Positions 9,839-62,334 of a DNA stretch of 64,000 bases are shown in pieces. The position numbers and the translations under genes were made by a program. Source of the DNA: Deltaproteobacteria bacterium (GTDB lineage Bacteria > UBA10199 > JACPAL01 > GCA-016699445); assembly GCA_016699445.1 (NCBI GenBank), contig CP064976.1:2222619-2286618 (forward strand), given 5' to 3'. The number at the start of each line of letters is the position of its first letter. The stretch's first letter is position 1. Below the pieces are notes generated by a model. It was not told the DNA's origin, ran no database searches, and saw only the letters and a program-made list of their open reading frames with translations.

Positions 9839-11647
9839 TTATGCGGCTACTTGAAGAGGTATCGACTTATCGTATTCATACTTTTTCACAAGTTTAGAGA
9901 CTTCAAATAGAAGTTGTTGGATAGCCGCTTCATCTTTTTGTGAAGAGGTCAGATGTCTTTTCATTATTGATAGCAATCGTCGTTTCATTTCTTCTCGATC
10001 ATCTTTTGCTTTTTGAGGAGGGATAGCTCGGATGCGAGCAATGATAGTGAAATAACGTTCTTCTTCTGAAGTAAGTTTGGTTATTTCATCTTCACTTATT
10101 TCTGTATTGAGAGCCGATGACCATTGAGTGGCGAGATTTGCAAGATACTGATCTGCAGGGCTGTAAGCACGTATAAGTGCATGGACTTTATCTATGATTT
10201 CTTGATCGGGAGTGTCTGCTGTTACATAAAAACCACCCGTCTGACGAAAATCAATAGTTCCTCCCGTAATGATAGGCTGAATGAATGGAAAAGTGTCTGT
10301 GAATTTTGGATCAATCGTAGTGCCTCCTAAAATATCAATGACAGAAATAAATACAGCTTTATTCATTTTTGCAGAAGTAGCTTTTGCAAGTTTAATTAAG
10401 CCAAAAATATTATCATAACGTTCAGGATGTTCTAATTTTACCACATTGTCATACATCGTGGGTATATCTAGAGTACCATTGTCTCGATAAACACGTGGAG
10501 CTCGTCCTCCTTGAACAAAAACGGCTGGCTCAATACCGAGTTTTTCAACGTTGTTTACAGTTTCATTAAAAGCTTCGGTTTGTGAGTCTTTGTTAGTGTT
10601 ATCACCATTCTGTTTAATCGCTGGTGGGAGAGCTAATACATCCATTAACCAAGAAAATAGAATCATTTTAGCTGCACGATTATTTCTAAAATTACTAATA
10701 TTTGCCATGAATCGTATTAAAGGACGAAGCGCAAATAAAGTGTAATTCGTCCACATCGTATGTCCATAAAGAGCATGAAAGATAGGTGTTCCTTTTGAAA
10801 CGTTTATTAAATTATCGAAACCCTGAGATGTCATACTCATCTTGTAGATTCGTGCTTGTCTTTGAGCCCAATAACCTAAAGCGTACCCAATGGCTTGTGT
10901 AAACTCAGGTGTGGCTTTTGCTTTACCTCCCATGAAAACTGTAGCGATATTGACAACAGTTTGAACAAATCCTTCCGCATGGACAGACGTGCGTCTAGCA
11001 AGTCCGAAAATTGTAGAAGCAGTATTAAGAAGTCCTGCATAGAAAGCTTTTTCAGAAGGAATTCTTTCTACACCCTCTCCATAGCGAGGCATGTTATTTT
11101 CTAACAAGTCTTGATGTTCAAACTCTTTAGGAACATCAGCCCCCAAAACTCCCAGGGCATTATGCTCAAACCTTTCCCAAGCATCCATTGTCAGCATCGC
11201 TCCTGCCGCCATTTGATTTTTGATGATAGCGTTTTCAACTCTATTGCTGTGATCTAAGGCTGCTAATGTAGAACCTAAAACGGCAGCAGCTGCCATTTGA
11301 GCTGGGTGAGAACCATAAGCATAAGCTATAAAAGGCATTAGCAAAGCTCTCCAGGGACTTAATTTCGAGTCCATTCTTCCAAATCGTTCGTTCCAATAAG
11401 CGAGTGCAGAACTTCTTTCTGGATTCATTTGCTTTCTTAAATCATCGGGCAGGATGGGACGAAATCCTCTGGCTAAGAGTCTGAGAACGGGTACCGTATA
11501 AGTAAGAGTCATAAGAGCATCAAGTGCGTAATTCGTTCCTGTCAAAACAGGTGCTGCTTGAGCTAAAGCTTCAAGGGGTTGAGTGTAGGCCGCTATTCCA
11601 ACAGCACCAGGAAGTACGCGAGCTGTAATAGAGTTTGGAGATGTCAT
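9839..11647 (-). CDS. Hypothetical protein, 602 aa, no recognised domain; polar uncharged N-terminus
   Basis: Long ORF, N-terminus MTSPNSITARVLPGAVGIA; AT-rich 200-bp upstream spacer. Confidence 0.6.
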   Translation of the reverse strand: MTSPNSITARVLPGAVGIAAYTQPLEALAQAAPVLTGTNYALDALMTLTYTVPVLRLLARGFRPILPDDLRKQMNPERSSALAYWNERFGRMDSKLSPWRALLMPFIAYAYGSHPAQMAAAAVLGSTLAALDHSNRVENAIIKNQMAAGAMLTMDAWERFEHNALGVLGADVPKEFEHQDLLENNMPRYGEGVERIPSEKAFYAGLLNTASTIFGLARRTSVHAEGFVQTVVNIATVFMGGKAKATPEFTQAIGYALGYWAQRQARIYKMSMTSQGFDNLINVSKGTPIFHALYGHTMWTNYTLFALRPLIRFMANISNFRNNRAAKMILFSWLMDVLALPPAIKQNGDNTNKDSQTEAFNETVNNVEKLGIEPAVFVQGGRAPRVYRDNGTLDIPTMYDNVVKLEHPERYDNIFGLIKLAKATSAKMNKAVFISVIDILGGTTIDPKFTDTFPFIQPIITGGTIDFRQTGGFYVTADTPDQEIIDKVHALIRAYSPADQYLANLATQWSSALNTEISEDEITKLTSEEERYFTIIARIRAIPPQKAKDDREEMKRRLLSIMKRHLTSSQKDEAAIQQLLFEVSKLVKKYEYDKSIPLQVAA

Positions 11648-15524: not shown

Positions 15525-17198
15525 TTATTTTTTGTTTAGTAGTGAAAAAAGCTGATGATTTCCAGCTGCTTGAACAGCTCCGAGGCTAGCAGCATGTGCT
15601 CTCATTATAGCTCTATGGAGATTATCTGCAGCCTCACGAGGGTTAGCCCCCTCATCAATATGTTCTTGAAGAGGGATGAGCCCATCAAAGCTCACAACAA
15701 CAGGTTGTTTCCTCTGAACGCCTTCTTTCAATAATTGATTTATTTTTGAGGGTAGAGCTTCGGATGTGCCATAGAGAGACACAACAACTACATATGTATT
15801 TCCCTTTTCTCTTTGAACGCGTGCAGCAAAATTAGCAGCTCCATGATGAAAGAAAGATTCACCTACTTCTTGGCCACGTATATCAGAGGTTCGTGACCCT
15901 CCCGGAAACCAGCAAATGGTTTTTCCTTTTTCGATTTGTTTTAAAGCAGCTTGCTCTACTTCTTGATAAGCTTCAGATTTTTTGCTTCGATCTACGGGAA
16001 TATGATTTCCTATGCCTAGAAGAGAATCTTCATGCCATCGAGAAGGGTCTAAGGGGTGATTGAAAGGATTATTTCCAAGTATTGGAGCCTTCCAAAGCTC
16101 TCTTTTAGCTATAAAAACCCCTTTGAAAAGGGCATAGAGTATCAATGCATCGAAGTGACTTCGATGGTTAGAAATGGCAATAATATTGGCCCCATCTTTT
16201 TTTAGCTTTTCTATTTCTAGTAAAACTTCGTGGTTTAAAATAAAAGGCTGCCATTGTAGGTGTTGCATAAGGCTAACAGTCCCCATGCTTAAGAGCCTTT
16301 TATATGAAGTGCCGGATGGATCAATCAAATGACTTCGTGTGGTGAGAGCTCCTACTTGTAAAAAATTAAATACAACTTCGGCTATGCCAAGCCGACTCAA
16401 CGTTGGTACGCCTTCAGGTCCACGACTTCTTTTTATTGCCTCGATAATTTGCTCGGCCTCACTTTTTTCTGGAAAGAAGGGGTTGGCTTCTGGGGGTTCT
16501 AAGGCAAGATAATGAGCGATATCAAAAGGCCCAATAGGACTTTGTTTAGTTTTATGTAAAAGCTTTTCAGCATTGGAAAGACGTAAAATGATCTCTGATA
16601 TTGAGAGTCCTAAAGCACCTGCATAAAGGCTAAGTGTCGAAAGATTTAATTGATTATTAAAAAGCTGATATAAAAGTATGGAAGGCAATCCAATGGCATG
16701 AAGTGCTGATCCCATCTCTCCCCAATAAGCAGCTTGTTTCCATAGGCTGTTAGAAATAGGGGTTGGGATATAAGTCTGACAAAGGCTTTTCCAATACTCC
16801 ACTTCGCGACAGACTTGTGTTACGTTGGTTTTTGTATCTTCTAGGCTATCTTCAAGTGATTTAAGAAGTTCTTTTGAATTGTGTAAGAATACAACTAAGC
16901 TTGGGTAGTTTCCGATTTCTCTTAAGGCATGGGCAACATCTTCAGGTCGAGTCGATCTAAGCATGGCTCTGTGATGAAGATTTTTTTCTGAAGAAGGGTA
17001 TTTCTTCACATATTCTTCCACAGCTTTTGCAATCATAGTTGTAAGCGTTGGAAAAGGATTGTTTTTATTGAGTTCACTGGCTTCAAAAATATGATTGCTA
17101 AGCTGAAATAAGGCCGCTCTTGTATCATCTGTGCATTTGATGCCTTCTTTAAGTGAAGGTGTAAGGGGTAGTCGCGTTTGAGTAGGTGCAACAATCAT
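15525..17198 (-). CDS. Two-domain protein: unknown N-terminal domain + C-terminal lysophospholipid acyltransferase domain (paralog of 11851..13548)
   Basis: HX4D in IAISNHRSHFDALIL, motif III ICWFPGGSRTS, motif IV TYVVVVSLYGTSEALP; N-terminus MIVAPTQTRLPLTPSL parallels MISTVAPTRVFLSPAL. Confidence 0.7.
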   Translation of the reverse strand: MIVAPTQTRLPLTPSLKEGIKCTDDTRAALFQLSNHIFEASELNKNNPFPTLTTMIAKAVEEYVKKYPSSEKNLHHRAMLRSTRPEDVAHALREIGNYPSLVVFLHNSKELLKSLEDSLEDTKTNVTQVCREVEYWKSLCQTYIPTPISNSLWKQAAYWGEMGSALHAIGLPSILLYQLFNNQLNLSTLSLYAGALGLSISEIILRLSNAEKLLHKTKQSPIGPFDIAHYLALEPPEANPFFPEKSEAEQIIEAIKRSRGPEGVPTLSRLGIAEVVFNFLQVGALTTRSHLIDPSGTSYKRLLSMGTVSLMQHLQWQPFILNHEVLLEIEKLKKDGANIIAISNHRSHFDALILYALFKGVFIAKRELWKAPILGNNPFNHPLDPSRWHEDSLLGIGNHIPVDRSKKSEAYQEVEQAALKQIEKGKTICWFPGGSRTSDIRGQEVGESFFHHGAANFAARVQREKGNTYVVVVSLYGTSEALPSKINQLLKEGVQRKQPVVVSFDGLIPLQEHIDEGANPREAADNLHRAIMRAHAASLGAVQAAGNHQLFSLLNKK

Positions 17199-20618: not shown

Positions 20619-21438
20619 ATGTTTCCCTATATAAATATGAATCTTCATTGTTTAAAAATTAAAAGCCAAACCGCCCCTCATAAAACCTTCTTTTTCCTCC
20701 ACGGTATTATGGGACGTGGGAGAAATTGGCAGCGCTTTGCGACAGAGCTAGTTCAGCGAAAACCAGATATCGAAGCGGTATTGGTCGATTTGCGTTTGCA
20801 TGGCGAGTCTCAAGGTTTTGATCCACCGCATACAGTACGAGCTTGTGGTGAAGATGTGGTAGGGGCAATTCATGAATTGCCCTTACAAAATGAAAAAAGT
20901 GATCGTTGGACATTCGTTCGGAGGGAAGGTGGCTCTGGAAGTTGCGCGACTCGCTCCTGATTTACTTTCAGCAATTTGGCTCATTGATTCATTTCCAGGT
21001 TTGTCTGCAAGGCATGGTGATGCTTGGAAAATGATTGAATGGCTTCAAAAAAATGAAGGTCCTTTTACAACACGGACAGAAGTGCTTAAAAAATTAAAAG
21101 AAGCGCAATTTCCCGAAGCCATCGCTGCGTGGATGGCGACCAATCTAGAACCCGAAGGAAAACTTTTAAAATGGATTTTCCCCGTGAAGGGCATCGCGAG
21201 TCTATTAGATGATTACGCCAAAACAGATTTGACCGACACACTCCTCAATCCACCATGTCCTATACATGTCGTGAAGGGGACAAAGTCGCCTTTGATTACG
21301 GATGATTTAATCCAGAAAATCCAACATTCAAAAACCAGATTTCCAATTTCCCTTCACTTCGTCGAAGCCGGACATTGGGTGCATTCTGAAAATCCGAAAG
21401 AATTGCTAAGAATAATGATGTCATCTTTTAAAGGATAA
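20619..21438 (+). pseudogene. Alpha/beta hydrolase, reading frame interrupted by a 28-bp palindromic insertion
   Basis: N-part FFFLHGIMGRGRNW..DLRLHGESQ (frame 0) and C-part KKVIVGHSFGGKVA.. (frame 1, GxSxG nucleophile); deleting 20859-20886 joins ..GEDV to KMKKVIVGHSFGG in frame. Confidence 0.65.
20859..20886. mobile_element. 28-bp palindromic insertion element, copy 1 (one mismatch)
   Basis: GTAGGGGCAATTCATGAATTGCCCTTAC; same element at 25885-25912; exact excision restores the hydrolase frame. Confidence 0.75.
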
Positions 21439-21621
21439 CATTTCTTCAAAATTACGAGGAGATGAGAGAATTTTTCCCTCGGGTGAGAAATATAAGTGAA
21501 TGGATTTAAAAGCACGATCGGGGCCAATAAATAACAGTCCTCGGTTATGTGTGGCAAAGTCTTTAGTAAGTCCTTAAGGAATTAACTTGAAATATACTCT
21601 ATTTATCCTACTATTAGGAGT

Positions 21622-21852
21622 ATGAAAGTTAAGACATCTATCACCCTTTCGGAAGATCTGTTAAGATCTATTGATGAACTGACGAAAGATTTCAAAAATC
21701 GATCCGATGTTATAGAGCAAGCTTTGAAGGAGTTTGTTCATAAAAAACTGAAAGAGATTAGAGACGAGAAGGATCGGCAAATTCTTAATAAAAAAGCACG
21801 TCAGCTCAATGAAGAAGCTTCCGATGTTTTAGGGTATCAGGCGGATTGGTAA
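21622..21852 (+). CDS. Ribbon-helix-helix (CopG-like) antitoxin
   Basis: 76 aa, N-terminal beta-strand/helix pattern [18 protein letters not shown]; immediately precedes a MazF/PemK-like toxin ORF. Confidence 0.6.
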
Positions 21853-22190
21853 GATGAAACGCGGCGAATTGTATCGAGTCTACAAACCTAACAAGAGAGA
21901 TCCAAAAGAGTTTCGTGTTTTTGCTATTGTCAGTCGTCAGGCTCTGATTGATTCTCAGTTTTCAACGGTCATTTGTGCCCCCTATTTATTCTCGCTATGA
22001 TGGTCTTTCAACCCAAATAGAAGTCGGCCCAGCCGAAGGGCTGAAGCATGAGAGTGCTGTGCATTGTGATGAGCTTGTTAGCCTTCCTAAAAGTCAGCTG
22101 ACACATTTTGTAGGGATGCTTTCTTTGCAAAAAATAAGACAGTTAGGCCATTCCCTTAAGATAGCGATCGATGTCGAAGCCCCTCATTAA
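21853..22190 (+). pseudogene. MazF/PemK-family toxin, frame-disrupted at a C5 run (~21985)
   Basis: ATG 21853 gives [27 protein letters not shown].. then stop; frame +1 continues ..[29 protein letters not shown], which matches the MazF C-terminal pattern. Confidence 0.6.
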
Positions 22191-22219
22191 GTTCATCAAA
22201 ACTTCTTTTTGGTGAACTT

Positions 22220-23473
22220 TTACACTTTTTCTGTTTCTTTAAAAGGAATCCAAAAAAGTAATATCATCGATGGAATGCCAGCAAAAAAGCTTAAGATGAA
22301 AAGATTGGTGTAGCCGATTTTTTCAACGATGATGCCACTGAAGCCGCCGAAGAGAGTGGAGCCTAGGCTCATGATGGCGGTGCCGATTGCAAAATGGGCG
22401 GCTTTATAGCGTGTGTCACACAATCTCATGAGATAGACAGTTAAGGCTGCCGCGCCTAATCCGGCAGCGATGTTTTCGTAAGCATGAGTGAGGGCAATGT
22501 AGGTCATGCCTTGCAAGGTGTTGGGATCGGGATGGTAAATGGAGAGTAAAATATAAGCTGCGATGTTGATGTTCATGAGAATGGTCAGTGGCCAGATAGC
22601 TTTTTTTAAACCTTGTTTATGAATCCACCAGCCACCGAGCATGGTGCCAGCAATGGTTGAGAAGGCTCCAACAAAGCCACCTAACCAAGCGATTTGTGGT
22701 TTGCTCACACCCAGCTCTCTCATCAAAAATGGCGTATTCATGGCGAAGAGAATTTCGTCTCCTAATTTATAGGTGATGATGAATATAAGAATGAGAACGA
22801 TTTTGTGCTGCGCCAAATAAACACGAAAAGAATCAATAAAATCTTGTTTGATAGCCTCAAAGTTTTTTTGTCGAGGGTGCTCGTTTTTCTTCAAAATGGG
22901 GAGAAGTTTGGTGTGAAGTAAAAAGAAAAGACCCATCGTCACAGCTCCAACAGAAAATCCCCAAAACCAATTGGCTACACCGGCAATAGCCACCAAGATA
23001 GTGCGTGTGTAAATCACTGCTCCACGATAGGCTAAAGTGCGTAAGCCTGAGTAGGCCGCTTGTTCGGATTTGTCTGGTAATCCTTCCAAATAAAAAGCAT
23101 CGATGGCGATGTCGTTGGTCGCTGCCAGAAAAGCCATTCCTATAAAAAGAAACGCGATGATTTGAAGTAAATGAGGTGAAGAATTTTTATCCGCAAATCC
23201 TGCTAAAAAAGAAATACTAAGAATAATCAGCGTAATAAAAAGCTGCATGCGCAACAGCCATTGGCGTTTCGTAGAAAAAATATCCAAGAAAGGTGCCCAG
23301 AAAAATTTAAGATTCCAAGGAATCCCTAAAAAATTCAGGAAGCCGAGGAAGGATTCACGCACGCCCATATCGGTAAAAAACACAGACGAAAGCACGCGTG
23401 TGATCATGTAAGGAAGACCTTCAGTAAAATAGGTAGAGGCAATCCAGAGCGACGTTCGCGATTTTTTGGTCAT
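22220..23473 (-). CDS. MFS-type permease, AmpG/PAT-like family
   Basis: 417 aa, ~12 predicted hydrophobic helices; N-terminal WIASTYFTEGLPYMI resembles AmpG signature. Confidence 0.6.
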   Translation of the reverse strand: MTKKSRTSLWIASTYFTEGLPYMITRVLSSVFFTDMGVRESFLGFLNFLGIPWNLKFFWAPFLDIFSTKRQWLLRMQLFITLIILSISFLAGFADKNSSPHLLQIIAFLFIGMAFLAATNDIAIDAFYLEGLPDKSEQAAYSGLRTLAYRGAVIYTRTILVAIAGVANWFWGFSVGAVTMGLFFLLHTKLLPILKKNEHPRQKNFEAIKQDFIDSFRVYLAQHKIVLILIFIITYKLGDEILFAMNTPFLMRELGVSKPQIAWLGGFVGAFSTIAGTMLGGWWIHKQGLKKAIWPLTILMNINIAAYILLSIYHPDPNTLQGMTYIALTHAYENIAAGLGAAALTVYLMRLCDTRYKAAHFAIGTAIMSLGSTLFGGFSGIIVEKIGYTNLFILSFFAGIPSMILLFWIPFKETEKV

Positions 23474-23573
23474 TTTTTAGATAATTACTATTTTACAGCG
23501 TATCTGGCTAGTGATGAATGATTGTTATGAAACAAAAGTTTGACTCATCATATGAGTCATTTATACTCATCAT

Positions 23574-23819
23574 ATGAGTCAACGATTACAAGTATTGCTT
23601 CCAGCTCAGGAATATAAGCAGTTTCGGAAAGTCTCTAAAGAACAAGGGTTAAGTTTGGGGGAATGGGTGAGAGTGACCTTAAGACAGGCTGTATCTCGTT
23701 TATCTTCCCAACCTGCTGATAAAAAACTAGAAGCTATCCGCAAGGCCAGTCGATTTTCTTATCCTTCCGGAGATATTGATCAAATGTTATCAGAAATTGA
23801 AAAAGGTTATCTCTCTTGA
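23574..23819 (+). CDS. Ribbon-helix-helix antitoxin (VapB-like)
   Basis: 81 aa; precedes and overlaps a PIN-domain ORF by 4 nt. Confidence 0.6.
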   Translation: MSQRLQVLLPAQEYKQFRKVSKEQGLSLGEWVRVTLRQAVSRLSSQPADKKLEAIRKASRFSYPSGDIDQMLSEIEKGYLS

Positions 23820-24198
23820 TTTTCATCGATTCGAATATCCCCATGTATCTTGTAGGTCAGGACCACCCCCATAAAACAGAGTGTATCGTTTTGCTCGAAA
23901 AAATGATTGTTGAAAAAGCACGATTTGTGACCAGTACGGAAGTCCTTCAGGAAATATTGCATCGTTATACAGCCATTCATCGGAAAGAAGCTATTTCAGC
24001 AGCATTTGATTCTCTTTATGGGATCGTGGATGAAGTTTTTGAGGTGACAGAAGCTGATGTGTTGGAAGCCAAGGATTTATTGCTGACAAACGAATAGATC
24101 TCCGCTCGCGATGCCTTGCATGGAAGTCTTATGAAGCGCCTCAAAATAAAGAAAATTTTCTCGTTTGATAAGGGTTTTGATGCTCTGCCATTTATCAA
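23816..24198 (+). pseudogene. VapC PIN-domain toxin with in-frame TAG (24095-24097)
   Basis: MIFIDSNIPMYL.. PIN N-terminus; after the TAG the same frame continues ISARDALHGSL...FDKGFDALPF, the PIN C-terminal motif region. Confidence 0.55.
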
Positions 24199-24258
24199 AA
24201 GAATTTCTTCTATAAAATGTTCATAAACGCACTTGAAAGTGTTTTGCTGGAAAATTTT

Positions 24259-24651
24259 TTATTTAGGGCCAATGATTTTAGCATCTGTCTTTTTGAAATC
24301 ACTGTCTAAGGTAAGAATCGGGCAACGCTCTTCCATGGCTAAGGCATAGGCAAAACAGTCACCTAAATTGATGGGGTAAGTCAGGCGGGCTTTAGCTGCT
24401 GTAACTGATTGATTTGTTGAAGGGGGTATAAATTGGATACCTGATGAAAGGATTTCGTCTTTAATTTTGGAGAAGAGTTTGGGCTGCTTGTCCTGAAGAA
24501 GAATGAGGGTTTCAGTGAGGTTGACGGTGCTCATCAGAAGCTCATGTCGATGAGCTTCTAGCTGATCTTCAACCCAGACGGCATGAGTTTCATTTAAAAA
24601 AAGAGCTAAGAGAGCTGAAGTATCAATGACCATATTATTTCCAAAGGTCAT
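24259..24651 (-). CDS. VapC PIN-domain toxin
   Basis: VIDTSALLALF.. and C-terminal LTLDSDFKK PIN motifs; overlaps upstream antitoxin. Confidence 0.75.
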   Translation of the reverse strand: MTFGNNMVIDTSALLALFLNETHAVWVEDQLEAHRHELLMSTVNLTETLILLQDKQPKLFSKIKDEILSSGIQFIPPSTNQSVTAAKARLTYPINLGDCFAYALAMEERCPILTLDSDFKKTDAKIIGPK

Positions 24652-24868
24652 CTTGAGACTTAAATTTTGTTTTTAGATTGAGATGCTGTTGTAAGGCCAA
24701 ACCTCTCCAAGTTCTGAAATCAGTATGCCTTGAGCGATTGATCATTTCTACGGCATCATGAATAGCTTTCCGAACAGCTTCTGACTTTTGAGTGACTCCA
24801 CATTTTTTCATGTAAGTTTTGAGATCTTTTTCAAACTCGGGAGTCATGTTAATGTTTAGTTGTTGCAT
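24635..24868 (-). CDS. VapB-type antitoxin
   Basis: 77 aa small ORF upstream of and overlapping the VapC gene. Confidence 0.55.
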   Translation of the reverse strand: MQQLNINMTPEFEKDLKTYMKKCGVTQKSEAVRKAIHDAVEMINRSRHTDFRTWRGLALQQHLNLKTKFKSQDDLWK

Positions 24869-24926
24869 ATAGCCTTAAATATAGGCCAGATATAGGTTGT
24901 TTTCAACAATAAAACTGCCTGATCTA

Positions 24927-26215
24927 TTACAACACATCCATAAACGCACTCACCGAAAAGACGGCCTTGCCTAATCCTGCTTCTCCATAACCGGGTGGGA
25001 TGGGGAGTTTGTATTTGTAAAAAGTCTCTCGATACACTTGGAGGAGGCGTAAGTAATAATCCAGAGGTGGCGGGCCTTCGTTGGTTTTGGCCAATGTGGT
25101 GTTCGGTTCGACACACCACACGGTGAAGCGGGGGCAGATGGATTGTGACATGAAAAAATCTAAACCCTCTTGCGTAGATCGAATCGCAGCTTCGATATCC
25201 GTGAAGCCAAAAGGTTTGGCCATCTCGATGCCGGCAACAAAATTAGGAATGACTTTTTCAGGGCCGAAAATTTTGGCTCCAGCCAGAATGCGGCGGATCC
25301 ATTCTTTTGACCGACATAGCGTGTTTTACCAGGACAGACGTGGTTAAAAATCTTTTCATCCCAGACTTCATAATTCGGGTGATAAATTTGATAGCCGGAA
25401 TCTTTTAAAATTTTAATTTCGTCATCAGGCAATCCTTGCACCACAGCCTTGCCAATCCAACGCCCGGGAAATTTTGCCTCGATGGCTTGAGCATATTGAG
25501 CGTAAAACTGTGCCTCGTTCATGCCACCCAGTTGTGAAGTGATACTGCCTCCGGTGACGGTATAAGCATGGCTCAGTTTTTGAGGATCATGTTTTTCAAT
25601 AATCTGCAGGGCTTCGATGACTTCATCTAAAGATTTGATTCCTGTATAAGAACGACCTTCGGCCTTTTGTTGGCGGTAGTTGTGGTTGATGTCGCAAAAC
25701 GCACATTCTTCTTCGGCTCCAAAATACTGACAGAGACGGAAGGCGGTAATGTAAATCAAATATCCCCACTCAATCGTGGGTGTGATATCGCTGACAGGTT
25801 TTCCATTAGCGAGGGGTTGTGCGTAATAATCCGGAAATGATGGGAGAAGAATGTCGCAGATTTTTTCGTCGTGAAAAAATAATTGTAGGGGCAATTCATG
25901 AATTGCCCCTACGGTGATTCGATACGGCGATTCCGGATTCACACGTACAGAAACTATCGTACGTTTAAAATCAAAAGGTCCTCCAATGAGGGCAATTTCT
26001 TCAGGTGCTGATTTTTTTTCTAGTTGTGAAAGATCTTTTTGAGCGGTGCGATCAAAGGAAAAAATAAAATAGGATTTTGGTTTGGCAGCTTTGCAGGCTT
26101 CCAAGGCTTCATTTGAAAATGAAATACCTAAACGTAGTAGATCTGTTTTGATGATCGCTTCAAATGGAATATCGCAGTATGTCTCCTTCAATATTAAAAA
26201 ATCTTCAGGCTTCAT
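24927..26215 (-). CDS. Hypothetical protein with Cys cluster (CX8CX2C) and TGG motif, possibly radical-SAM-like; contains the 28-bp palindrome in frame and a frame change near 25310
   Basis: ORF 25160..26215 reads through the palindrome (..ITVGAIHELPLQLFF..); C-terminal continuation in the frame of ORF 24927..25223 (..RRILAGAKIFGPEKVIPNFVAGIEMAKPFGFTDIEAAIRS..). Confidence 0.4.
25885..25912. mobile_element. 28-bp palindromic insertion element, copy 2 (perfect palindrome)
   Basis: GTAGGGGCAATTCATGAATTGCCCCTAC; encodes VGAIHELPL in the host ORF, the same peptide as copy 1. Confidence 0.75.
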
Positions 26216-37660: not shown

Positions 37661-39256
37661 TTAAAAATCATTAATTAATGTATCCTTTTTGAAATTTTCC
37701 GAAGTGTTTGGCAAATCCAAATTGTAATGAAGTCCACGACTTTCCTGACGAGAAAGAGCACAGCGAATGATTAAATCGGCAACTGTCGCAATATTACGGA
37801 GTTCGAGTAGATCGGCTGAAACTTTAAAATTCCAATAATAATCATTAATCTCCTTCATCAAAAGATCCAGTCGACTTCGTGCCCGGAGAAGGCGTTTGTT
37901 GGTGCGTACGATGCCTACATAGTTCCACATGGTACGACGAATCTCGTCCCAGTTTTGAGTGATCACAACATTTTCATCACTGTCGACAGCTTGGCCTGAA
38001 TTCCAATCAGGAATATTTTCAGAAAATGAGATATTTTTTATTTCTTTCGAAGTTTCTAAATAAGCTTGATGAGAAAACACAACGGCTTCGAGAAGGGAAT
38101 TGGATGCTAAGCGATTGGCTCCATGCAAACCTGTGCAGGCCACTTCTACCGCCGCATAAAGCCCCGGAATATTGGTTTGCGCTTTGAGATTGGTGACCAC
38201 ACCTCCACAAAAGTAATGAGCAGCAGGAACCACCGGAATAGGTTGGGTGGCGATGTCAATACCGTAGGACAAACAGTTTTGATAAATCGCCGGAAATCGT
38301 TCGCGGATAACAGCTGCTTTTTTATGAGTGAGATCGAGAAAAACACAATCCTGACCTGTGCGTTTCAGCTCCTGATCGATCGCGCGTGCGACCACATCAC
38401 GAGGGGCTAGATCGCGCATGGGATGATAGGATTCCATAAAGGCTTCACCGGTTTGAAGTCGGAGAATACCCCCTTCACCACGCATTGCTTCTGTGATTAA
38501 AAATGATTTTGCCTGGGGATGGTAAAGACAGGTGGGGTGAAATTGGACAAACTCCAGATTGGCCATCGTGGCTCCTGCACGAAAAGCCATAGCCATCCCA
38601 TCACCTGTGGCGATGTCGGGATTGGATGTGTATAAATAAACTTTTCCAGCACCACCGGTAGCCAAAAACGTGATTTTTGAGTGGAGTGTTTTAATAGCTC
38701 CCTGTTTTTCATCTAAAACGTAAGCACCCAAGCAGCGATTGTTTGCAGAATTTTTATCCAACTTTTTAGTCGTTATGAGATCGATGACAAAATGATGTTC
38801 CAGCATCTGAATGTTGGATGAGCGTCGGATGGCTTCCAGAAGGGCTCGTTCAATTTCAGCACCTGTTGTATCTCGACTATGAAGGACGCGGCTTTCACTA
38901 TGACCACCTTCACGGGTCAGATCAAAGGTGTTGGTTTGGTTTTTGGAAAACTCCACGCCCCACTGAATCAAGCTTTGGATGGCTTGAGGCCCTTCATTGA
39001 CCACAAGTTTAACGACATCTTCGTGACAGAGTCCATAACCAGCACTCAGAGTGTCTTGAATATGGGAATCTACGGAGTCTTTTGAATTTACTGAAGACAT
39101 CACGGCTGCGATGCCACCTTGAGCGTAGTTGGTGTTGGATTCTGCTTTTGATTTTTTGGTGACAATGGTCACAGATCCTTTTTGTGCGGCTTGAAGGGCA
39201 AAAGTAAGTCCTGCGATCCCAGAACCAATAACTAAATAGTCGGTAGAAATAGTCAT
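37661..39256 (-). CDS. nadB: L-aspartate oxidase
   Basis: Start at ATG 39256 ([20 protein letters not shown] fold); FVQFHPTCL motif; ORF-track N-extension lacks support. Confidence 0.85.
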
Positions 39257-41455: not shown

Positions 41456-43513
41456 ATGAAAAAACAACTATTTCGTTATAGTGGACTCTTGGCGACGAGC
41501 CTGGTTTCTGTGTTTATTTTAGGCACTGGTTTGGGAGCCGGTGGGTGTGGAGGCTCTTCGACAGGTAATGCTGGTGGTGGAGATACGGGTGGGACAACAA
41601 TCACCTTGAGTGGACAAGCCGCCGTTCGTGCTCAGGATGTTTCTGGACTTCGTCTCAGTGCGCTGACTCTTAAAAATAGTATCCTTGGATTCAGACCAAA
41701 ATTTGCAACGATCGGAGACACCGCTTTGGCTTCTGCCGATGTGACCCTGGTGAAAATTAATGCGGATGGTACCGAAGAAACAGTTTCTGGTGTGACGGCA
41801 ACAACAGATAGTGATGGAAATTATACCTTGTCTGATGTTCCTGTGACCGAGACAGGGAGTGGGGCCACGACAGATTTTTATTACGAAGTGAGAATTGATA
41901 ATGGAGATGGTTATATTGCCGCTCCAGTGGCTGCAGAAGCCGATGCCACCGTCAATGTTTCTCCGGAAACTAATCTTGCCGCTACGATGCTTATGGATGT
42001 CGCTCAAGCAGATGCTACAGGAGCCACCCATGTGGTTCCTTCGGAAAGCATAATTAATGATCTCCGTGAAGCCGCTTTAGATGAAGTGTCTGGAACCTTA
42101 GATGGCAAAGTCACTATTCCAGATGCAACAGATGCTGAGCAAACGGGGGAGATATTGAAAAAGCTGTGGAAGCCGTGGAAGCGGAAAAAAATTATTTAGC
42201 GCTTGAAAGCTCTACTGATGAAGCTGAAGTGGCTTCTTATTTGTCGAGTACAACTAAAGCAGCTTGTGATTATAGCTCCAATCTCATTTTGCCTCAGTCA
42301 GCAATGGAGACGATTGCGGGTCTTTTTGCTTCCGATACGACTGTGACAATGGCGGATTTAGTCGCAGCTTTTAATGCCAGCAATGGTTCTGATCCAGATG
42401 TGACCTCTGAGGCAGCGACCACGTCGTTGGATACGATGCTGGACAATCTTGATACCGCGCTTGTGGGTGATGCTCCTGTGGCAGATGCTGATAGTATTGC
42501 AGCTTTTGTCAAAAGAGATCTGACTTCTTCGACATTTGATAGTACCACCCCTTTAGAAATGGATCAGGCTTTGGCTTTTGTTCAGACCTTATTTCCGACT
42601 GATTGTAATAATAGTCATTTTCGATTTTATTACGTTTGCCAATGAGTTGGGTGGTAGTGAAGTGACAGCCAGTTCTGAAGTCATCGATGCTCAAATTTAT
42701 CACAACTCGATGGGATCTTGTCCAGGACAAGGACATCTTCAGGCCAATGTACGTGTTTATGCGGCTACTGGATTAACAACATCGGGTGTCGTTCTATCTG
42801 GTGGGACTTCTCCAGTGACATTATCAGCGGGTCCTGTGGTGGGGGATATTTCAACATGGACGATTACAGGAGATTCCTGCGTGACCTTACCTAGTGATGT
42901 CGATTACACCGTGACGGCGACTATGAGTAATGCCTCGACTGTGACGCTGAGTAAGACAGTGCCTCATCGCAGTGTCGATGAAGCCGCAATTAGTCTCGTA
43001 GCTGCGGATGGTACTGAGACGCCATTTTCGAGCAGCAGTCCTGTGTACAAAGTACCTGTGGCTCGTCCCACCTTTAAGTGGACTCCAGCACCAGGAACAC
43101 CCACAAGCGATTCTGTGAATGGAGATGTTCCAGAAAACACCAAGGTTAAGTTTATCTTTGAACTCGCTTACACCTTCAGTAGTGATTTTTTAGCGGGCCA
43201 CAGTGGCGCATCAGTTAGTCCTATTAATTACTGTGGTACAGGAGGCAGTGGTAATAAGTTGATGGATAAAAACTACTTCGTCTCTGATACGGATTGCGAT
43301 ATTGCAGCCTGTTTGGCCAGCATTCAAGAACATGCGACTGTATCTTTGAATACAGGAGATGTAAGCACCTCCGGCATTGAAACAACTGATATCGTCTGCC
43401 GCACGAACATCCAAACTTTCTTAGTGGATGATCTGGATAATATCATCGGTCAAGCTGCTGGAAATTTTCGTAACTACTGCGTGGATGCGGATGGAGATGA
43501 AGAATGTGATTAA
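41456..43513 (+). CDS. Large secreted lipoprotein (~685 aa) split over three ORFs by two frame disruptions (~42148, ~42590)
   Basis: Signal peptide + LGAGGC; ORFs 41456..42199, 42166..42645, 42578..43513 are serially overlapping; a G5 to G6 change joins ..AEQTGGDIEKAVEAVEAEKNY..; removing one T joins ..NNSHFDFITFANELGG.. Confidence 0.55.
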
Positions 43514-43538
43514 TTATTGATGACACATGAATTTAAAA

Positions 43539-46779: not shown

Positions 46780-46851
46780 GCGGGAGTAGCTCAGTGGTAG
46801 AGCGCCACCTTGCCAAGGTGGATGTCGCGGGTTCAAATCCCGTCTCCCGCT
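46780..46851 (+). tRNA. tRNA-Gly (anticodon GCC)
   Basis: Cloverleaf: acceptor GCGGGAG/CTCCCGC, D-arm GCTC..GAGC, anticodon loop TTGCCAA, T-arm GCGGG-TTCAAAT-CCCGT; no encoded CCA. Confidence 0.85.
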
Positions 46852-47022: not shown

Positions 47023-47355
47023 GTGAGCGTGATATTTGAGCTTAAATGTTATCAAGAAGGCGGTCAGATTCCTTTTTCAGAATGGTTGGATGAATTGGAT
47101 GCTAGGACAGCAGGTCGTATTAGAGCTTATACTGAAAGAATGAGGAGTGAAAATTTTGGCGATACGAAAAATGTTGGACGTGGAGTTCTAGAGCTGAAGC
47201 TTAATTTTGGTCCAGGATATCGAGTATACTATCTGCGTGACGGTGTGTCGGTTGTATTGCTTTTGTGTGGTGGTGATAAAGGTTCGCAAGAGAAAGACAT
47301 TCAACAAGCTCATAACTTTGCTCAAAATTATTGGAGGCAACGTGAAAAAAAATAA
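47023..47355 (+). CDS. HigB/Gp49-type addiction-module toxin (RelE/ParE superfamily)
   Basis: 110 aa; ..GRGVLELKLNFGPGYRVYYLRDGVSVVLLLCGGDKGSQEKDIQQA.. matches phage Gp49/HigB pattern. Confidence 0.7.
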   Translation: MSVIFELKCYQEGGQIPFSEWLDELDARTAGRIRAYTERMRSENFGDTKNVGRGVLELKLNFGPGYRVYYLRDGVSVVLLLCGGDKGSQEKDIQQAHNFAQNYWRQREKK

Positions 47356-47671
47356 TCTACCATATGTTTCTTATGAAGAAGAGCAGATTCGTGAATTTCG
47401 TGAAGATCCTGAACGAGCGATGGAATATCTAAATGCTTGTGTTGAGGTGGCGTTTGAAGAAAACGAGCCTGAGTTAGTTTTGAATGCCTTAGCTGTTATT
47501 GCAAAAGCCTATGGTATTACAAAGTTGGCGAAAAAGACCCATATTCAAAGAGAAAGTATTCATCGCATGTTTTCCAAAGGGGGTAACCCAGAATGGAAAA
47601 GTATTTTTAAAATGTTTAGGGCTTTAAAAATAAGAATGAAGCTTGAGTTTTTAAACCCATTAGTTGTTTGA
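47342..47671 (+). CDS. HigA-type addiction-module antidote protein (HTH)
   Basis: GTG start overlapping toxin stop; FREDPERAMEYLNACVE...LALNALAVIAKAYGITKLAKKTHIQRESIHRMFSKGGNPEWKSIFKMFRALKIRMK matches antidote family. Confidence 0.7.
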   Translation: MKKNNLPYVSYEEEQIREFREDPERAMEYLNACVEVAFEENEPELVLNALAVIAKAYGITKLAKKTHIQRESIHRMFSKGGNPEWKSIFKMFRALKIRMKLEFLNPLVV

Positions 47672-48644: not shown

Positions 48645-50269
48645 CTAAAGCCCAAGAGTTTTGAAAAAATCATTCCCCTTATCATCAATTAAGATAAAGG
48701 CGGGGAAATTTTTCACGTCGATTTTCCAGACCGCTTCCATGCCGAGCTCAGGAAAATCGAGACATTCGACTTTATTAATATTTTCTTCTGCAAGGACCGC
48801 TGCAGGGCCTCCGATCGATCCTAAGTAAAATCCGCCATATTTCTTGCAGGCATCAGTAACTTGTTGGCTGCGATTGCCTTTGGCAATCATGACCATGCTG
48901 GCACCTTTGCTCTGTAAAAGATCCACATAAGAATCCATGCGACCTGCCGTTGTGGGTCCAAACGAACCTGAAGCTTTACCTTTGGGTGTTTTAGCAGGAC
49001 CTGCATAGTAGATGGGGTATTTTAAAAGATAATCAGGAAGAGGTTTGCCGGCATCGATAATCTCTTTAAATTTCGCATGGGCAATATCACGACCTACGAC
49101 AATGGTTCCTGTGAGAAGGAGGGCTGTGGAGACGGGGTATTGTGAAAGTTGAGCCAGGATTTCCTTCATGGGACGATTGAGATCAATTTTAACACCGATT
49201 TCATTTTTGGTGCGGTATGAAGGAGGAATCAAGCGGCCTGGATTGCGATCCAATTCCTCAACGAAAAGTCCGTCACGAGTGATTTTAGCTTTGATATTTC
49301 GATCGGCAGAGCAAGATACTGCCATCCCAATGGGGCAGGAAGCTCCATGCCGTGGCAGACGGATTACACGCACATCATGAGCAAAATATTTTCCGCCAAA
49401 TTGAGCTCCGATACCGATATGAAAAGCTTCATTTAATAATTTTTTTCAAGCTCGACATCACGAAAGGCTTGGCCATGTTCGTTGCCTTGAGTGGGCAGTT
49501 CATCCAGATAATGAGTGCTGGCCAATTTGACTGTTTTTAAGCACGCATCAGCGCTCGTGCCGCCGATGACAAAAGCCATATGATAAGGTGGACATGCTGC
49601 AGTGCCCAAGGTTTTCATTTTTTCGACCAAAAATTTTACGAGTTTTTCAGGAGTCAAAAGCGCTTTGGTTTCCTGAAAGAGATAGGTTTTGTTGGCAGAA
49701 CCGCCACCCTTGGCTAAAAAGAGAAATTTGTAGCTATCCCCATCGACGGCTTGAATATCAATTTGAGCGGGAAGGTTGGTTCCTGTGTTGATCTCATCAT
49801 ACATATTGAGCGCAACAGTTTGTGAGTATCGTAAGTTTTCTTCCGTATACGTTTTGTAAATTCCCAATGAGAGAGCTTCTTCGTCTTTTCCACCCGTCCA
49901 GATATTTTGACCTTTTTTGGCGATCACATGGGCTGTGCCTGTATCTTGACAGGTAGGGAGGCTAAAGTTGGCAGAAATTTCGGCATTGCGCAAAAAAGCC
50001 AAAGCGACACCTTTGTCGTTTTCCGAAGCTTCGGGATCATTCAGAATTTTGGCGACTGATTCATTGTGCTCAGCGCGAAGCAGAAAAGAAACATCGCGCA
50101 TCGCTTCATGGGCAAGTTGTGTGAGTGCTTCAGGCTGGATGCAAACGACTTCTTTTCCATTAAAACTTTGAACACTCACTAAGTTTTCAGAGTCTTCAAT
50201 TTTTCGATAACGTGTCGAGTCGTTTTGAAGTGGATACGGATTTTGATAAACAAAAGGTTTAGTCGTCAT
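48645..50269 (-). CDS. fumA: Fumarate hydratase class I (Fe-S), frame-disrupted at an A7 run (~49415)
   Basis: N-part with CQDTGTA; C-part [25 protein letters not shown]...[31 protein letters not shown]; alternate frame across junction reads ..[28 protein letters not shown].. Confidence 0.85.
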
Positions 50270-50337: not shown

Positions 50338-52269
50338 TCATTGAGGCTGATTAATTGATAACAGTGGTGACATCCCGATTAAAGCTCTCGCTGTTGTAAA
50401 AATAACTTCAATAACAGCTTCTGCTGAAGGTGGAGTGCTATTTTTCGACAAGTTGGAAAAAAAACTATAACCAGCTCTCAGTGAAAAATGAGAGTTATGT
50501 GTTCTCAAAAGGACGTCCAATAATAGTGGATCTAGAAAGAGCGTTTCAGGGAATTGCCCTGGGTGCTCAATATACCTAATGTTTTGTTTTCCAAGCCAAT
50601 CATATACTTTGTCGAGGCGATCTCTCTGTATGGGGCCTATGCTTTGGATCAAGGTTTGAAGCTCTTTTTTAAGAACCTCCAACCTTTCGGAATCCCCTCT
50701 TAAAAGTGATTGAACAAATTGGTCTCTTAAATTTTTGAGTTTAATGATGATATTCAGAAGCTCTTGGTCTTCTTTAGTAAGTTTTGGATGCGGCGTTACT
50801 TCATCAGGAAGTGGATCTTGTGGAGTTTGATAAAGTGGAGATAGTCGATTCCAGTTTGATTCATGGAGCTGTGCTTTAGCCTGTTGTTTCCAAGCTAGGA
50901 CAGCAGGTAGGTTCGCCCAAGGTGACCATGAAAGATGCGCTCCAAGTAAAGTGAGCAACGGAGAACCTTTCTTCAAGAAGGGTCTTTTGCTTAAAAGTGC
51001 AATCAAGAGTGCCGGGTGTTGATCTTTTTCAATGATTTTTGAAATTATAGAAGCCGCGTAAGCTGCTTGATCTGTAAAAGAGGGTGGGGGTAAGCCCAAT
51101 GCTTCTGCTACTTTTTCCCATTGGGAGGTTTCTTGAGATAACTCCATCATGGACAGTATTAATTCTATGCAAATCAGACTTCTTTTTTCTTCTAAAACTT
51201 CTTCAAACCTATGCAGAAGAATAGAATGATAAATGTTCGTAATCCGTTCCCGTAGTCGTTTGATTTTATTACCTATGAAATGTTCAGAGCCATCCCTGCT
51301 TTTTTTTGTAAGTTGGGCCACTCTCAAAGAGTCCTTCTGATAATGACTGATAACTTCGCGGGTCCAAATAGCATAATCATTAGCTGTGGTAGATGCAGGT
51401 CTTGTAGCAGGATCTATAGTTATTAAGGGATCTTGATATCCATAAACATAAGGCCTTTCACTCCAGTTTGAATAGGAAGGTTGGAGATGCGTAAAGGGTA
51501 GAGGCGGGTTTGTAGCCTTCACTTCATCCGCATGAGGATAAGGATCGATAAAGCCAAAAAGAAGATAGAGAAATTTCGAATTGCTGTAGAGCTTATCTTT
51601 TAAAATATTAGGAATAGCTGTCCAAGCTTCTTGTAGGCGTCGACATAAATAATCAATAAGTGGGAAATTTTTTTCGGAGGCTTGCATGAGAATCTCTAGT
51701 ATCTCTAAAAGAGTTTCTAAACTTTTGTAAGAACAAGTATCCGGAGAAAGCAGATTTTCGATCCAAGTAATTGTTGCTGTAAAAGGGAGACTTTCTGATC
51801 TTGGAGGTTTCGATTCTTCATATTCTCCACACCATTGATTAGAGAATGTTCGCATTTCTTCTAAAACTTCTGGCAGAGAAAACCCTCGGGTGTACCAATC
51901 TCTCAACAAGGCATAAGGTTCCATTTCAATGACTTCAGGATTTCCAGTGAGCTGAGTCGGCCACAAAGGATCTTGTTGAGCCAAAAAGTTTATTCCTGAT
52001 GTACGAATTTGCTCAGCAGTGAGACTATTTGAGACCCAAATCTCAAATGAATCCGGTAATCTTTCATCTGAAGGTTTTAGACGGGGTGCTAATAACGCAC
52101 CAGCTCCTCCTAAAACAACTACAGCCACCAAACTAAGAAGAGGTGGTACTTGAGAAGTCGATAAAACGTCCTCCCCCTGTGAAGCTGGCTGTAAGTGAGC
52201 ATCAGCTGCAGGTGCAGAAGGAAAAACAGTTGCAGTCGGAGAACCTGTGATAACAAAAGGCGGTGGCAT
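50338..52269 (-). CDS. Hypothetical protein, 643 aa, single N-proximal hydrophobic helix; polar uncharged N-terminus
   Basis: MPPPFVITGSPTATVFPSAPA.. then LLSLVAVVVLGGAGALLA helix; no recognised domain. Confidence 0.55.
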   Translation of the reverse strand: MPPPFVITGSPTATVFPSAPAADAHLQPASQGEDVLSTSQVPPLLSLVAVVVLGGAGALLAPRLKPSDERLPDSFEIWVSNSLTAEQIRTSGINFLAQQDPLWPTQLTGNPEVIEMEPYALLRDWYTRGFSLPEVLEEMRTFSNQWCGEYEESKPPRSESLPFTATITWIENLLSPDTCSYKSLETLLEILEILMQASEKNFPLIDYLCRRLQEAWTAIPNILKDKLYSNSKFLYLLFGFIDPYPHADEVKATNPPLPFTHLQPSYSNWSERPYVYGYQDPLITIDPATRPASTTANDYAIWTREVISHYQKDSLRVAQLTKKSRDGSEHFIGNKIKRLRERITNIYHSILLHRFEEVLEEKRSLICIELILSMMELSQETSQWEKVAEALGLPPPSFTDQAAYAASIISKIIEKDQHPALLIALLSKRPFLKKGSPLLTLLGAHLSWSPWANLPAVLAWKQQAKAQLHESNWNRLSPLYQTPQDPLPDEVTPHPKLTKEDQELLNIIIKLKNLRDQFVQSLLRGDSERLEVLKKELQTLIQSIGPIQRDRLDKVYDWLGKQNIRYIEHPGQFPETLFLDPLLLDVLLRTHNSHFSLRAGYSFFSNLSKNSTPPSAEAVIEVIFTTARALIGMSPLLSINQPQ

Positions 52270-52418
52270 ATAGAGACTTATTCGGAAGATGAAAAAGTAA
52301 GTTGCGATTTTTCATCAGTCTTTATTTTGCTTTCATAAAAATCCGCAACTTTTGATGCTTGTTTGCCGATGACTAAGAATCATTAAAAAGATTTATTTGC
52401 CGTAACGCGTCAATTTCT

Positions 52419-53408: not shown

Positions 53409-53426
53409 ATACAAAAGGGAGGTTGT

Positions 53427-54434: not shown

Positions 54435-54436
54435 TC

Positions 54437-56203: not shown

Positions 56204-56228
56204 CCTCAAAAAATCAGGAGCGAAGATT

Positions 56229-57404: not shown

Positions 57405-57409
57405 AAATT

Positions 57410-57491
57410 GTAGGGGCGCCATTCATGGCGCCCCTTTATTTACTGCGATAAATTAGGGCGTGATGAACACGCCCCTACCGTGGGGGTAGGG
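57410..57491. repeat. Three tandem GC-rich hairpins related to the 28-bp palindrome
   Basis: GTAGGGGCGCCATTCATGGCGCCCCT; AGGGCGTG-ATGAAC-ACGCCC; CCCTACC-GTGG-GGGTAGGG; directly 3' of thiolase stop. Confidence 0.6.
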
Positions 57492-60913: not shown

Positions 60914-61858
60914 ATGACTCAAAAAACAATTATTATCGGGACTCGTGGAAGCCCTCTGGCACTTTGGCAGGCTAATTTCGTAAAAAATTTACTGTTGGAA
61001 GAATATGCAGACCTGTCTATTGAGCTCAAAATTATCAAGACGACAGGGGATAAGATTGATCAGATCCCTTTGGCTGAAATTGGTGGGAAAGCTCTCTTTT
61101 TAAAAGAAATCGAAGAACAGCTTTTAGATGGGAATGTTCATTTGGCTGTTCACAGTATGAAAGATGTGCCGACAGTTTTTCCCAAAGGCCTTAGGCTTGC
61201 GGCTGTATTGAAACGAGAAGATCCACGAGATGTGATGATTTCGCATAAATATGCGTCGTTGGCAGCACTTCCCAAAAAGGCTGTGGTGGGAACGAGTTCT
61301 TTGAGAAGAAAAGCACAGCTTAAAAATTGGCGTAGTGATTTGGAGATTGTTCCTATTCGTGGAAATGTCGATACACGACTGAAGAAGCTTGAAACAGAAA
61401 ATATGTCGGCCATTATTTTGGCTTCAGCAGGGATGACCCGATTAGGTCTTTCAAATCATATTACAGAATATATTAATCCTGAAACGATGTTGCCGGCTGT
61501 AGCTCAAGGAGCGATCGGGATTGAAGTTCGTGAAAAAGATGAAGACATTTTAAACTTGGTCAAATGCCTCAATCACCGCGAGACCGAAATCTGTGTAACC
61601 GCTGAAAGATCATTTTTGAAAACCATTGAAGGGGATTGCCAATCTCCCGTGGCTGCACATGCGGTTTGTCATGGAGAAACTTTAAAAGTAGAAGGAATGG
61701 TTTCGACTTTGGATGGTTATGAAGTAATCAAAGATTCCGTTTCCGGATCCATTGATGCCCCAGGCCTTTTGGGTGAGCAACTCGCTCGAAAAATATTATC
61801 TCAAGGTGGAGACACTATTTTAGAAAGATGTCGTCTTAATCATTATACAAAGTCTTAA
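60914..61858 (+). CDS. hemC: Hydroxymethylbilane synthase (porphobilinogen deaminase)
   Basis: IIIGTRGSPLALWQANFV N-terminus; full-length HemC 314 aa. Confidence 0.9.
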   Translation: MTQKTIIIGTRGSPLALWQANFVKNLLLEEYADLSIELKIIKTTGDKIDQIPLAEIGGKALFLKEIEEQLLDGNVHLAVHSMKDVPTVFPKGLRLAAVLKREDPRDVMISHKYASLAALPKKAVVGTSSLRRKAQLKNWRSDLEIVPIRGNVDTRLKKLETENMSAIILASAGMTRLGLSNHITEYINPETMLPAVAQGAIGIEVREKDEDILNLVKCLNHRETEICVTAERSFLKTIEGDCQSPVAAHAVCHGETLKVEGMVSTLDGYEVIKDSVSGSIDAPGLLGEQLARKILSQGGDTILERCRLNHYTKS

Positions 61859-62334
61859 ATAGAGACGTTCTCTAAGAATTCTCGACATGAATAAATCTCT
61901 CGATAAATTTTCTTCCCAGCTCTGAGAAATCTTTCATCAGATGTGATAAACGGAATTTTTCGATTCATGGCTACAGCTAGATAGCTACAGTCGTAGATTC
62001 TCTTGAGGTCTAGCCGAGAAGCTAAGTCTGTGGCTGTTTTAAGAACAGAGGCCTGCCATTGAAAGATCAAGTTAGTATGGTAAAAGATATCGATAGCCGT
62101 ATCTCTCTCTAAATGGCTCATTCCCTCTTTTTGTGATTTTTGATGAAGTGCTGAAATAACTTCAAAAAAAACAAGACCAGGTTCAAAAAGATCTATCGAT
62201 TCTTCATCAATTTTATCCCAGAGCTCTAGTGCCGCTTGATGGAGTGGTTCCACTTTAACGAGTGCTGCGATGAAAATATTAGCATCCAAACATATCTCTG
62301 TTGGTACTAAATGCATTTTATCCCCCTTCCTCAC
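61855..62334 (-). CDS. PIN-domain protein (VapC-like toxin)
   Basis: CLDANIFIAAL and C-terminal PFITSDERF motifs; probable start at internal Met MHLVPTE. Confidence 0.65.
   Translation of the reverse strand: MRKGDKMHLVPTEICLDANIFIAALVKVEPLHQAALELWDKIDEESIDLFEPGLVFFEVISALHQKSQKEGMSHLERDTAIDIFYHTNLIFQWQASVLKTATDLASRLDLKRIYDCSYLAVAMNRKIPFITSDERFLRAGKKIYREIYSCREFLENVSI

Follow-up and report, generated by a model that had tools for sequence, protein, structure and literature searches.

Seven toxin-antitoxin modules in 64 kb of a deltaproteobacterial genome, with a MazF frame break very probably due to assembly error and a VapC stop codon that is probably genuine

A 64-kb stretch (64,000 nucleotides (nt); hereafter the window) of the metagenome-assembled genome (MAG) "Deltaproteobacteria bacterium", a genome assembled as a single 2,746,553-bp contig (locus tag IPJ69_; proteins QQR80098-QQR80145), carries seven toxin-antitoxin (TA) modules, which make up 14 of its approximately 60 genes. 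Three of these, modules 1 to 3, lie inside the 3.3 kb at 21622-24868 and represent two toxin classes (MazF, VapC and VapC). The interpretation that we consider likely is that all seven are conventional type II TA operons, that the break in the MazF frame of module 1 is a homopolymer error in the consensus, and that the TAG codon inside the VapC frame of module 2 is probably a genuine, recent knock-out.

Toxins and antitoxins were called by applying Pfam gathering scores and NCBIfam cutoffs to the window proteins, and the window was compared with a second strain, the Logan assembly of SRR12404947, in which the corresponding sequence lies on loci L007-L011 (L008 and L010 share one contig). All seven toxins exceed the Pfam gathering score: four are PIN/VapC, one is PemK/MazF (in its repaired frame), one ParE and one Gp49 (HI1419-type RelE/ParE). 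Four of the seven antitoxins also pass a profile threshold, as RHH_1, Phd (two) and HI1420. Every pair consists of small, adjoining, co-oriented genes whose stop and start codons abut or overlap, and one of which has a recognised toxin domain. An initial annotation, made from the sequence alone, had placed three modules in 21622-24868 and four more elsewhere in the window; all were found where it put them, and its assignment of the toxins to the PIN, MazF, ParE and HigB families came through the profile searches that it had named as a possible refutation. Gene calls and profile searches across the 64 kb revealed no additional TA modules among the other genes, which are those of core metabolism and chaperones. 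The modules comprise the following features:

21622..21852, + strand: module 1 antitoxin, ribbon-helix-helix (CopG/MazE-like), 76 amino acids (aa), intact; RHH_1 25.9 bits against a cutoff of 20.5
21854..22190, + strand: module 1 toxin, MazF/PemK, split into open reading frames (ORFs) of 48 aa and 80 aa; PF02452 40.6 bits in the repaired frame
23540..23582, + strand: module 2 promoter/operator, with -35 TTGACT, 16-nt spacer, -10 TATACT and two palindromes
23574..23819, + strand: module 2 antitoxin ("VapB"), 81 aa, intact; its stop codon and the TTG start of the toxin overlap (TTGA)
23816..24226, + strand: module 2 toxin, PIN/VapC, 136 codons, with an in-frame TAG at 24095-24097 (codon 94); PF01850 57.3 bits across the stop
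24259..24651, - strand: module 3 toxin, PIN/VapC, intact, 124-130 aa depending on start choice; PF01850 77.5 bits; present in L007
24635..24868, - strand: module 3 antitoxin, 77 aa, intact; assigned by position only, directly upstream of the PIN gene
32515..32820, - strand: module 4 toxin, ParE, 101 aa, intact; PF05016 49.2 bits against 23.0; protein identical in L009
32807..33088, - strand: module 4 antitoxin, Phd/YefM; PF02604 30.6 bits against a cutoff of 29.8 (marginal)
33230..33541, + strand: module 5 antitoxin, ribbon-helix-helix-like (sub-threshold); RHH_8 18.9 bits against a cutoff of 25.4
33543..33932, + strand: module 5 toxin, PIN/VapC, 129 aa, intact; PF01850 57.8 bits; QQR80120.1
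47029..47355, + strand: module 6 toxin, HigB-like, RelE/ParE superfamily (HI1419 type), first in its operon; TIGR02683 105.1 bits against 62.85
47342..47671, + strand: module 6 antitoxin, HI1420-type (HigA-like), 109 aa; PF21716 58.2 bits, TIGR02684 66.8 against 53.7
61855..62316, - strand: module 7 toxin, PIN/VapC, 153 aa, intact; PF01850 57.4 bits; QQR80145.1; identical in L008
62318..62605, - strand: module 7 antitoxin, Phd/YefM; PF02604 46.9 bits

The PF01850 scores of the four PIN toxins (57.3, 77.5, 57.8 and 57.4 bits) compare with a cutoff of 23.6, and in an alignment of these four with six homologues D5, E46, D99 and D118 are invariant.

The lesion in module 1 is an additional C in a C5 run at 21978-21982, which interrupts the MazF frame; with one C removed the frame becomes a continuous 111-aa PemK, whose PF02452 match then covers profile positions 1-107 of 109. 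L007 has an unbroken 111-aa PemK orthologue, which reads C4 at the break site, and in a third sample, ERR12160659, the MazF ORF of at least 97 codons runs past this site. The tract as a whole is closely conserved, with 2 substitutions in 569 nt relative to the second strain. The closest solved relative of the toxin is M. tuberculosis MazF3 (E = 4.5e-5). Its antitoxin, which is preceded by a promoter-like site at 21587-21614, has a weak NCBIfam MazE match, and two other samples have the identical protein.

Whether such a break reflects the organism or its assembly can be judged from the company it keeps. Over the ~57 kb aligned, window and second strain share 95.6-98.4% nucleotide identity, and the second strain has each of the seven modules in the same place, with 14 of 14 TA genes intact. 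The two differ by ~1,700 substitutions and by 24 insertions or deletions (indels) of one or two bases. Twenty of the 24 indels fall in homopolymer runs of at least 4 bases, which account for 11.4% of bases; 17 are deletions on the window side; and 18 affect coding sequence, where they break or alter 12 genes, all of them whole in the second strain:

15536-17198: acyltransferase, indel at 15545, whole in the second strain
20709-21438: alpha/beta hydrolase, indel at 20898, whole in the second strain
22220-23473: MFS gene, indels at 22863 and 22897, a +1/-1 pair
24927-26215: MqnE/CofH-like radical-SAM gene beside a menaquinone gene, indel at 25304
30026-31110: dnaJ, indel at 30085, frame shift at codon 22, immediately ahead of the HPD motif
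35840-37671: gene of a 610-aa protein, indels at 36922, 37526 and 37603
48645-50269: class I fumarase, indel at 49439
54931-56203: DctM, indel at 55916
57493-58259: SIMPL protein, indel at 57526
TA genes: MazF, indel at 21978; Phd of the ParE module, 32834; Phd of the last VapC module, 62383 and 62435

The MazF break is thus one of 18 coding run-length indels that also hit dnaJ, fumarase, DctM and antitoxins, and since MazF is moreover intact in the second strain and read through in the third sample, we regard the break, from these sequence comparisons, as very probably an assembly error of one base in homopolymer length. The initial annotation had taken this toxin to be decaying, and had itself named consensus error as what would refute that view; a change from C4 to C5 relative to a 97.5% identical strain with an intact MazF makes such an error very probable. 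The other indels invite the same explanation. The broken genes keep a low ratio of non-synonymous to synonymous change (pN/pS 0-0.18, no different from intact genes). Indels also occur in tracts with no substitutions between the strains: in the 2.1 kb at 61866-63968 there are no substitutions but 2 indels, each of them in Phd. The genes hit are ones whose loss is unlikely in a free-living bacterium, dnaJ among them, which adjoins dnaK and has an A5 run where the sister strain has A6, so that the 306-aa dnaJ ORF listed for the window is an N-terminally truncated artefact. Lastly, an intact VapC beside a truncated Phd, as in module 7, would be harmful if real. From the single megabase contig of this MAG we infer long reads, and homopolymer indels are a known residual error of Nanopore assemblies (Sereika et al. 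2022, PMC9262707). The pattern in the window resembles that described there in its one- or two-base run changes, mostly deletions, in its splitting of conserved genes and in the megabase single-contig MAG in which it is seen; it differs in the close pairing of some indels, which is not textbook.

The lesion in module 2 is of another kind. A C-to-T substitution has turned a CAG (Gln) codon, at a variable position, into the TAG, and the predicted product, of 93 aa, is without D99 and D118. A homology search with the repaired VapC recovered a protein of the second strain (P0001, on L007, SRR12404947) that is 98% identical, uninterrupted, and has CAG at codon 94. In the ~57 kb compared, the CAG-to-TAG change at 24095 is the sole internal nonsense substitution. 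That the one such change among ~1,700 substitutions lies in a toxin, a kind of gene whose knock-out is tolerated, leans towards its being real, as does the improbability that a substitution error should both make a stop and land in the 5% of coding sequence that toxins occupy. To judge from this comparison, the TAG is probably a real and very recent mutation. Reading of TAG as a sense or recoded codon was considered and ruled out, TAG being the terminator of 12 of the 53 long ORFs in the window. A sequence search of the PDB with the TAG-bearing VapC returned no match.

The antitoxin upstream of the TAG-bearing gene shows 0 non-synonymous changes relative to L007. Two perfect 17-nt palindromes, ACTCATCATATGAGTCA, 22 nt apart, overlap its promoter, the second covering the antitoxin ATG; in the second strain the half-sites are kept and the spacers changed. 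The -10 element ends at 23567, and the transcript may be leaderless. The best profile matches of the antitoxin, RHH_5 (E = 0.16) and DUF6290 (E = 0.084), are both sub-threshold, and single-sequence AlphaFold models of the antitoxins of modules 2 and 3, with pLDDT of 62-66 (module 2: 66), were too poor for structure search.

The first alternative to be weighed is that both lesions are consensus errors, in which case the organism would have seven intact modules and no decay at all. The assembly clearly contains many errors; the VapC frame downstream of the TAG is undamaged, with D99, D118 and F121 still encoded; and the CAG of the second strain stands in a tract only ~0.5% diverged from that of the window. 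The signature of error in this assembly, however, is homopolymer length and not substitution, as the tract at 61866-63968 with its indels and unchanged bases illustrates. A rough estimate puts the chance of a stop-making substitution error in a toxin at <1%, against several percent for a real knock-out. Methylation-linked basecalling error at the TAG, next to GATC, was also considered; no excess of substitutions was found near GATC or CCWGG motifs. We think it unlikely that both lesions are errors.

A second alternative, which the initial annotation favoured, is that both toxin lesions are real and that the addiction modules are decaying selectively, the toxin being lost first and the antitoxin kept. 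Losing the toxin and keeping the antitoxin is one of the accepted ways in which TA modules decay. Toxins and antitoxins often occur singly (Makarova, Wolf and Koonin 2009, PMC2701414). Both the MazF-like frame break and the in-frame TAG of VapC are indeed in the sequence, and the antitoxins of these two modules are, as claimed, intact; they are also conserved. As a pattern, decayed toxins beside intact antitoxins did not hold up. The same type of lesion as in MazF is found in 9 genes outside the TA modules, dnaJ and fumarase among them, and two Phd antitoxins are frameshifted beside an intact VapC and an intact ParE: that of module 4 by a 1-nt deletion in a run at ~32834, which alters its last ~9 residues (93 aa against 90 aa in the second strain), and that of module 7 by A-run deletions at 62383 (-1) and 62435 (-2), which truncate to 64 aa a protein that is 96 aa long and intact in L008. 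Nor are toxins enriched for indels, receiving 1 of the 18 in coding sequence against ~0.9 expected, although the lone nonsense substitution does fall in a toxin. TA genes taken together have 4 of the 18 against a share of 8.5% of coding sequence (binomial P ~0.06), three of these four being in antitoxins; counted as genes, TA genes are 3 of the 12 affected, and they form about 1/4 of all genes. The MazF change, finally, stands in a tract with the 2 substitutions in 569 nt noted above, and MazF is intact in two other samples. Selective decay of both modules is thus very unlikely; loss of the toxin with its antitoxin kept is not borne out for MazF and is plausible for the TAG-bearing VapC alone.

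Two further possibilities treat the run lengths as real, and to each we give hardly any credence. One is that the frameshifts are genuine throughout the genome, slippage mutations having accumulated through relaxed selection or a mismatch-repair defect, with possible rescue by transcriptional or ribosomal slippage; every event is at a run prone to slippage, the MFS pair restores its frame and indels cluster in pairs, but the pN/pS of broken genes is as low as that of intact ones, there is one nonsense substitution and no large deletion or insertion sequence (IS) element in the 64 kb, the indels occur in tracts otherwise identical between strains, and the DnaJ partner of DnaK, fumarase and menaquinone synthesis would be lost. 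The other, equally remote from what we expect, is that MazF and the two Phd antitoxins are switched or slippage-rescued, as phase-variable TA modules in an environmental deltaproteobacterium.

Returning to our preferred interpretation, of seven conventional operons with an erroneous MazF break and a probably genuine VapC stop, several observations weigh against it. Counted per run of at least 5 bases, coding indels are ~3-fold rarer than intergenic ones (18/472 against 6/52), so that some of the indels are probably true differences between the strains. In the MFS gene a +1/-1 pair brings the frame back after 11 altered codons and looks like selected compensation; the second strain's version is closer to a distant homologue. 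Indels cluster in close pairs beyond what a uniform spread would give, and real slippage mutations, like errors, favour homopolymers. An error of the consensus could also account for the TAG, and the platform on which the source was sequenced is one that we infer from contig size. As to the conventional nature of the operons, the three antitoxins labelled "VapB" in the initial annotation (23574-23819, 24635-24868 and 33230-33541) have no profile match above threshold; its other antitoxin families, ribbon-helix-helix, Phd (two) and HigA (here the HI1420 type, HigA-like), were upheld.

At seven modules in 64 kb, the window exceeds several-fold the genome-wide figure of TA-rich M. tuberculosis, for which 79 TA loci are recorded (PMC5517426), and such a density, if uniform over the 2.75 Mb, would give ~300 modules; the initial annotation's judgement that the density is high is sound on this basis, the comparison being one of a 64-kb window with a whole genome. 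Many genomes show a significant excess of close TA pairs of different classes, termed TAS islands (PMC2701414). The window resembles these in the three modules of two toxin classes within 3.3 kb, in the ParE and VapC modules within 1.4 kb (32.5-33.9 kb), and in a GC content of TA genes below that of their surroundings; it differs in that conserved housekeeping genes stand between the modules, which do not form one mobile block. GC content is 38.7% for the TA modules (each 36.7-40.9%) and 42.2% for the window (permutation P = 0.0006), which fits a horizontal origin of the modules. They are stable in position between the two strains. Divergence between strains is lower for the TA modules (0.71%) than elsewhere (2.2-3.1%), a difference of borderline significance only (permutation P = 0.05), divergence being mosaic throughout.

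How the modules would work can be proposed by analogy with their families. The seven operons would have been inserted one by one or a few together among core housekeeping genes. Their small DNA-binding antitoxins, of ribbon-helix-helix, Phd or HI1420 type, would bind and neutralise the toxins and repress their own promoters; autorepression fits the presence of two palindromes over the module 2 promoter. The toxins would comprise four PIN/VapC RNases, a MazF mRNA interferase, a ParE gyrase poison and a RelE/HigB-like ribosome-dependent RNase. With a real TAG, module 2 would be reduced to an autoregulated orphan antitoxin and an inactive 93-aa PIN fragment lacking two of the four catalytic acidic residues.

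Each family shows departures from its type. The four PF01850 toxins resemble those of M. tuberculosis VapBC in their length (124-153 aa), in their four acidic residues and in having an upstream partner whose stop touches or overlaps the toxin start; unlike VapBC, their antitoxins are mixed, one being Phd-type, one weakly RHH_8-like and two of no recognised family, and the TAG-bearing VapC is without a solved-structure relative by sequence. Module 1 resembles MazEF/PemIK (Kis-Kid) with a ribbon-helix-helix antitoxin, its RHH_1 gene being followed 1 nt on by a PemK gene whose nearest structure is that of MazF3, but the toxin frame, intact in the sister strain, is broken in the window by the extra C. 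Module 4 is like the hybrid ParDE/Phd-Doc-type pairing of ParE with Phd/YefM in its above-threshold PF05016 and PF02604 matches, its antitoxin-first order and its overlapping genes, and unlike it in that the C-terminus of Phd varies between strains by run length. Module 6 passes the equivalog models TIGR02683 and TIGR02684 of HI1419/HI1420 and has the toxin-first order of HigBA; Pfam, however, puts the toxin in Gp49 (PF05973; 27.0 bits) and not in HigB_toxin, so that "HigBA" describes its architecture only.

Some particulars of modules 3 to 7 remain to be recorded. The antitoxin of module 3, which has no profile match in Pfam or NCBIfam, is preceded by a promoter-like site at 24906-24878 and its protein is identical to that of L007. 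In module 5 the antitoxin stop lies 1 nt ahead of the ATG of the PIN gene, the product of which (QQR80120.1) bears the NCBI name "PIN domain-containing protein"; the module 7 toxin (QQR80145.1) is named "VapC family toxin". The module 6 toxin has one amino-acid difference from that of L010, and the antitoxin is identical there. This HigBA-like pair starts ~180 nt after a tRNA-Gly(GCC) at 46780-46851, which is the one tRNA of the window and its only Rfam match. An origin of the pair as an island integrated at tRNA-Gly was considered and rejected, the 3' end of the tRNA being repeated nowhere in the window.

Other observations concern the surroundings of the modules. Modules 1 and 2 are separated by the MFS transporter gene (22220-23473). 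Exact-sequence look-ups found nothing for the MFS protein, a dodecin, the Phd at 32.8 kb or HigB, and scans of GTDB and JGI metagenomes with the MFS protein found only relatives of 37-70% amino-acid identity; the loci of such relatives (L001, L002, L012 and L014) show no common gene order and no TA neighbours, and are uninformative on the time of module insertion. A literature search found nothing relevant under SRR12404947, the locus tag or a protein accession. Indels were seen in close pairs, 34-77 nt apart, four times (22863/22897, 37526/37603, 57481/57526 and 62383/62435) where ~0.7 were expected; such pairing could be due to low-quality local consensus, to strain mixture in polishing or to real compensation. 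A hypervariable 698-aa ORF without a Pfam match, at 41456-43516, is divided into three ORFs in the window; after 42145 its nucleotide identity falls to ~83%, against ~98% in the flanks, with indels of -31 nt and +1 and several in frame. Between the strains there are also several 3-6-nt indels in a patch at ~9940-10600 of the gene of a 602-aa hypothetical protein (9839-11647), and in-frame indels of -3 and +9 in that of a 600-aa Gln/Pro/Thr-rich low-complexity protein (33935-35737) beside the VapBC module at 33.2-33.9 kb. Divergence is strongly mosaic at 20691-25912 and 51866-63968, where tracts of up to ~2 kb with no substitutions lie beside tracts of ~10% (e.g. 55066-55865), which suggests recombination within the population or strain-mixed assemblies.

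The modules of the window are further members of well-known TA families, in a kind of clustering already described, and NCBI annotation already names at least two of the toxins VapC/PIN. Apparent pseudogenes in long-read MAGs should not be taken as decay before homopolymer errors have been excluded, for example by means of a sister strain, and small genes such as those of toxins and antitoxins are especially exposed, a single run-length error being enough to destroy the frame. If the TAG in the VapC of module 2 is real, it would represent a clean and very recent knock-out of a toxin beside a conserved, autoregulated antitoxin.

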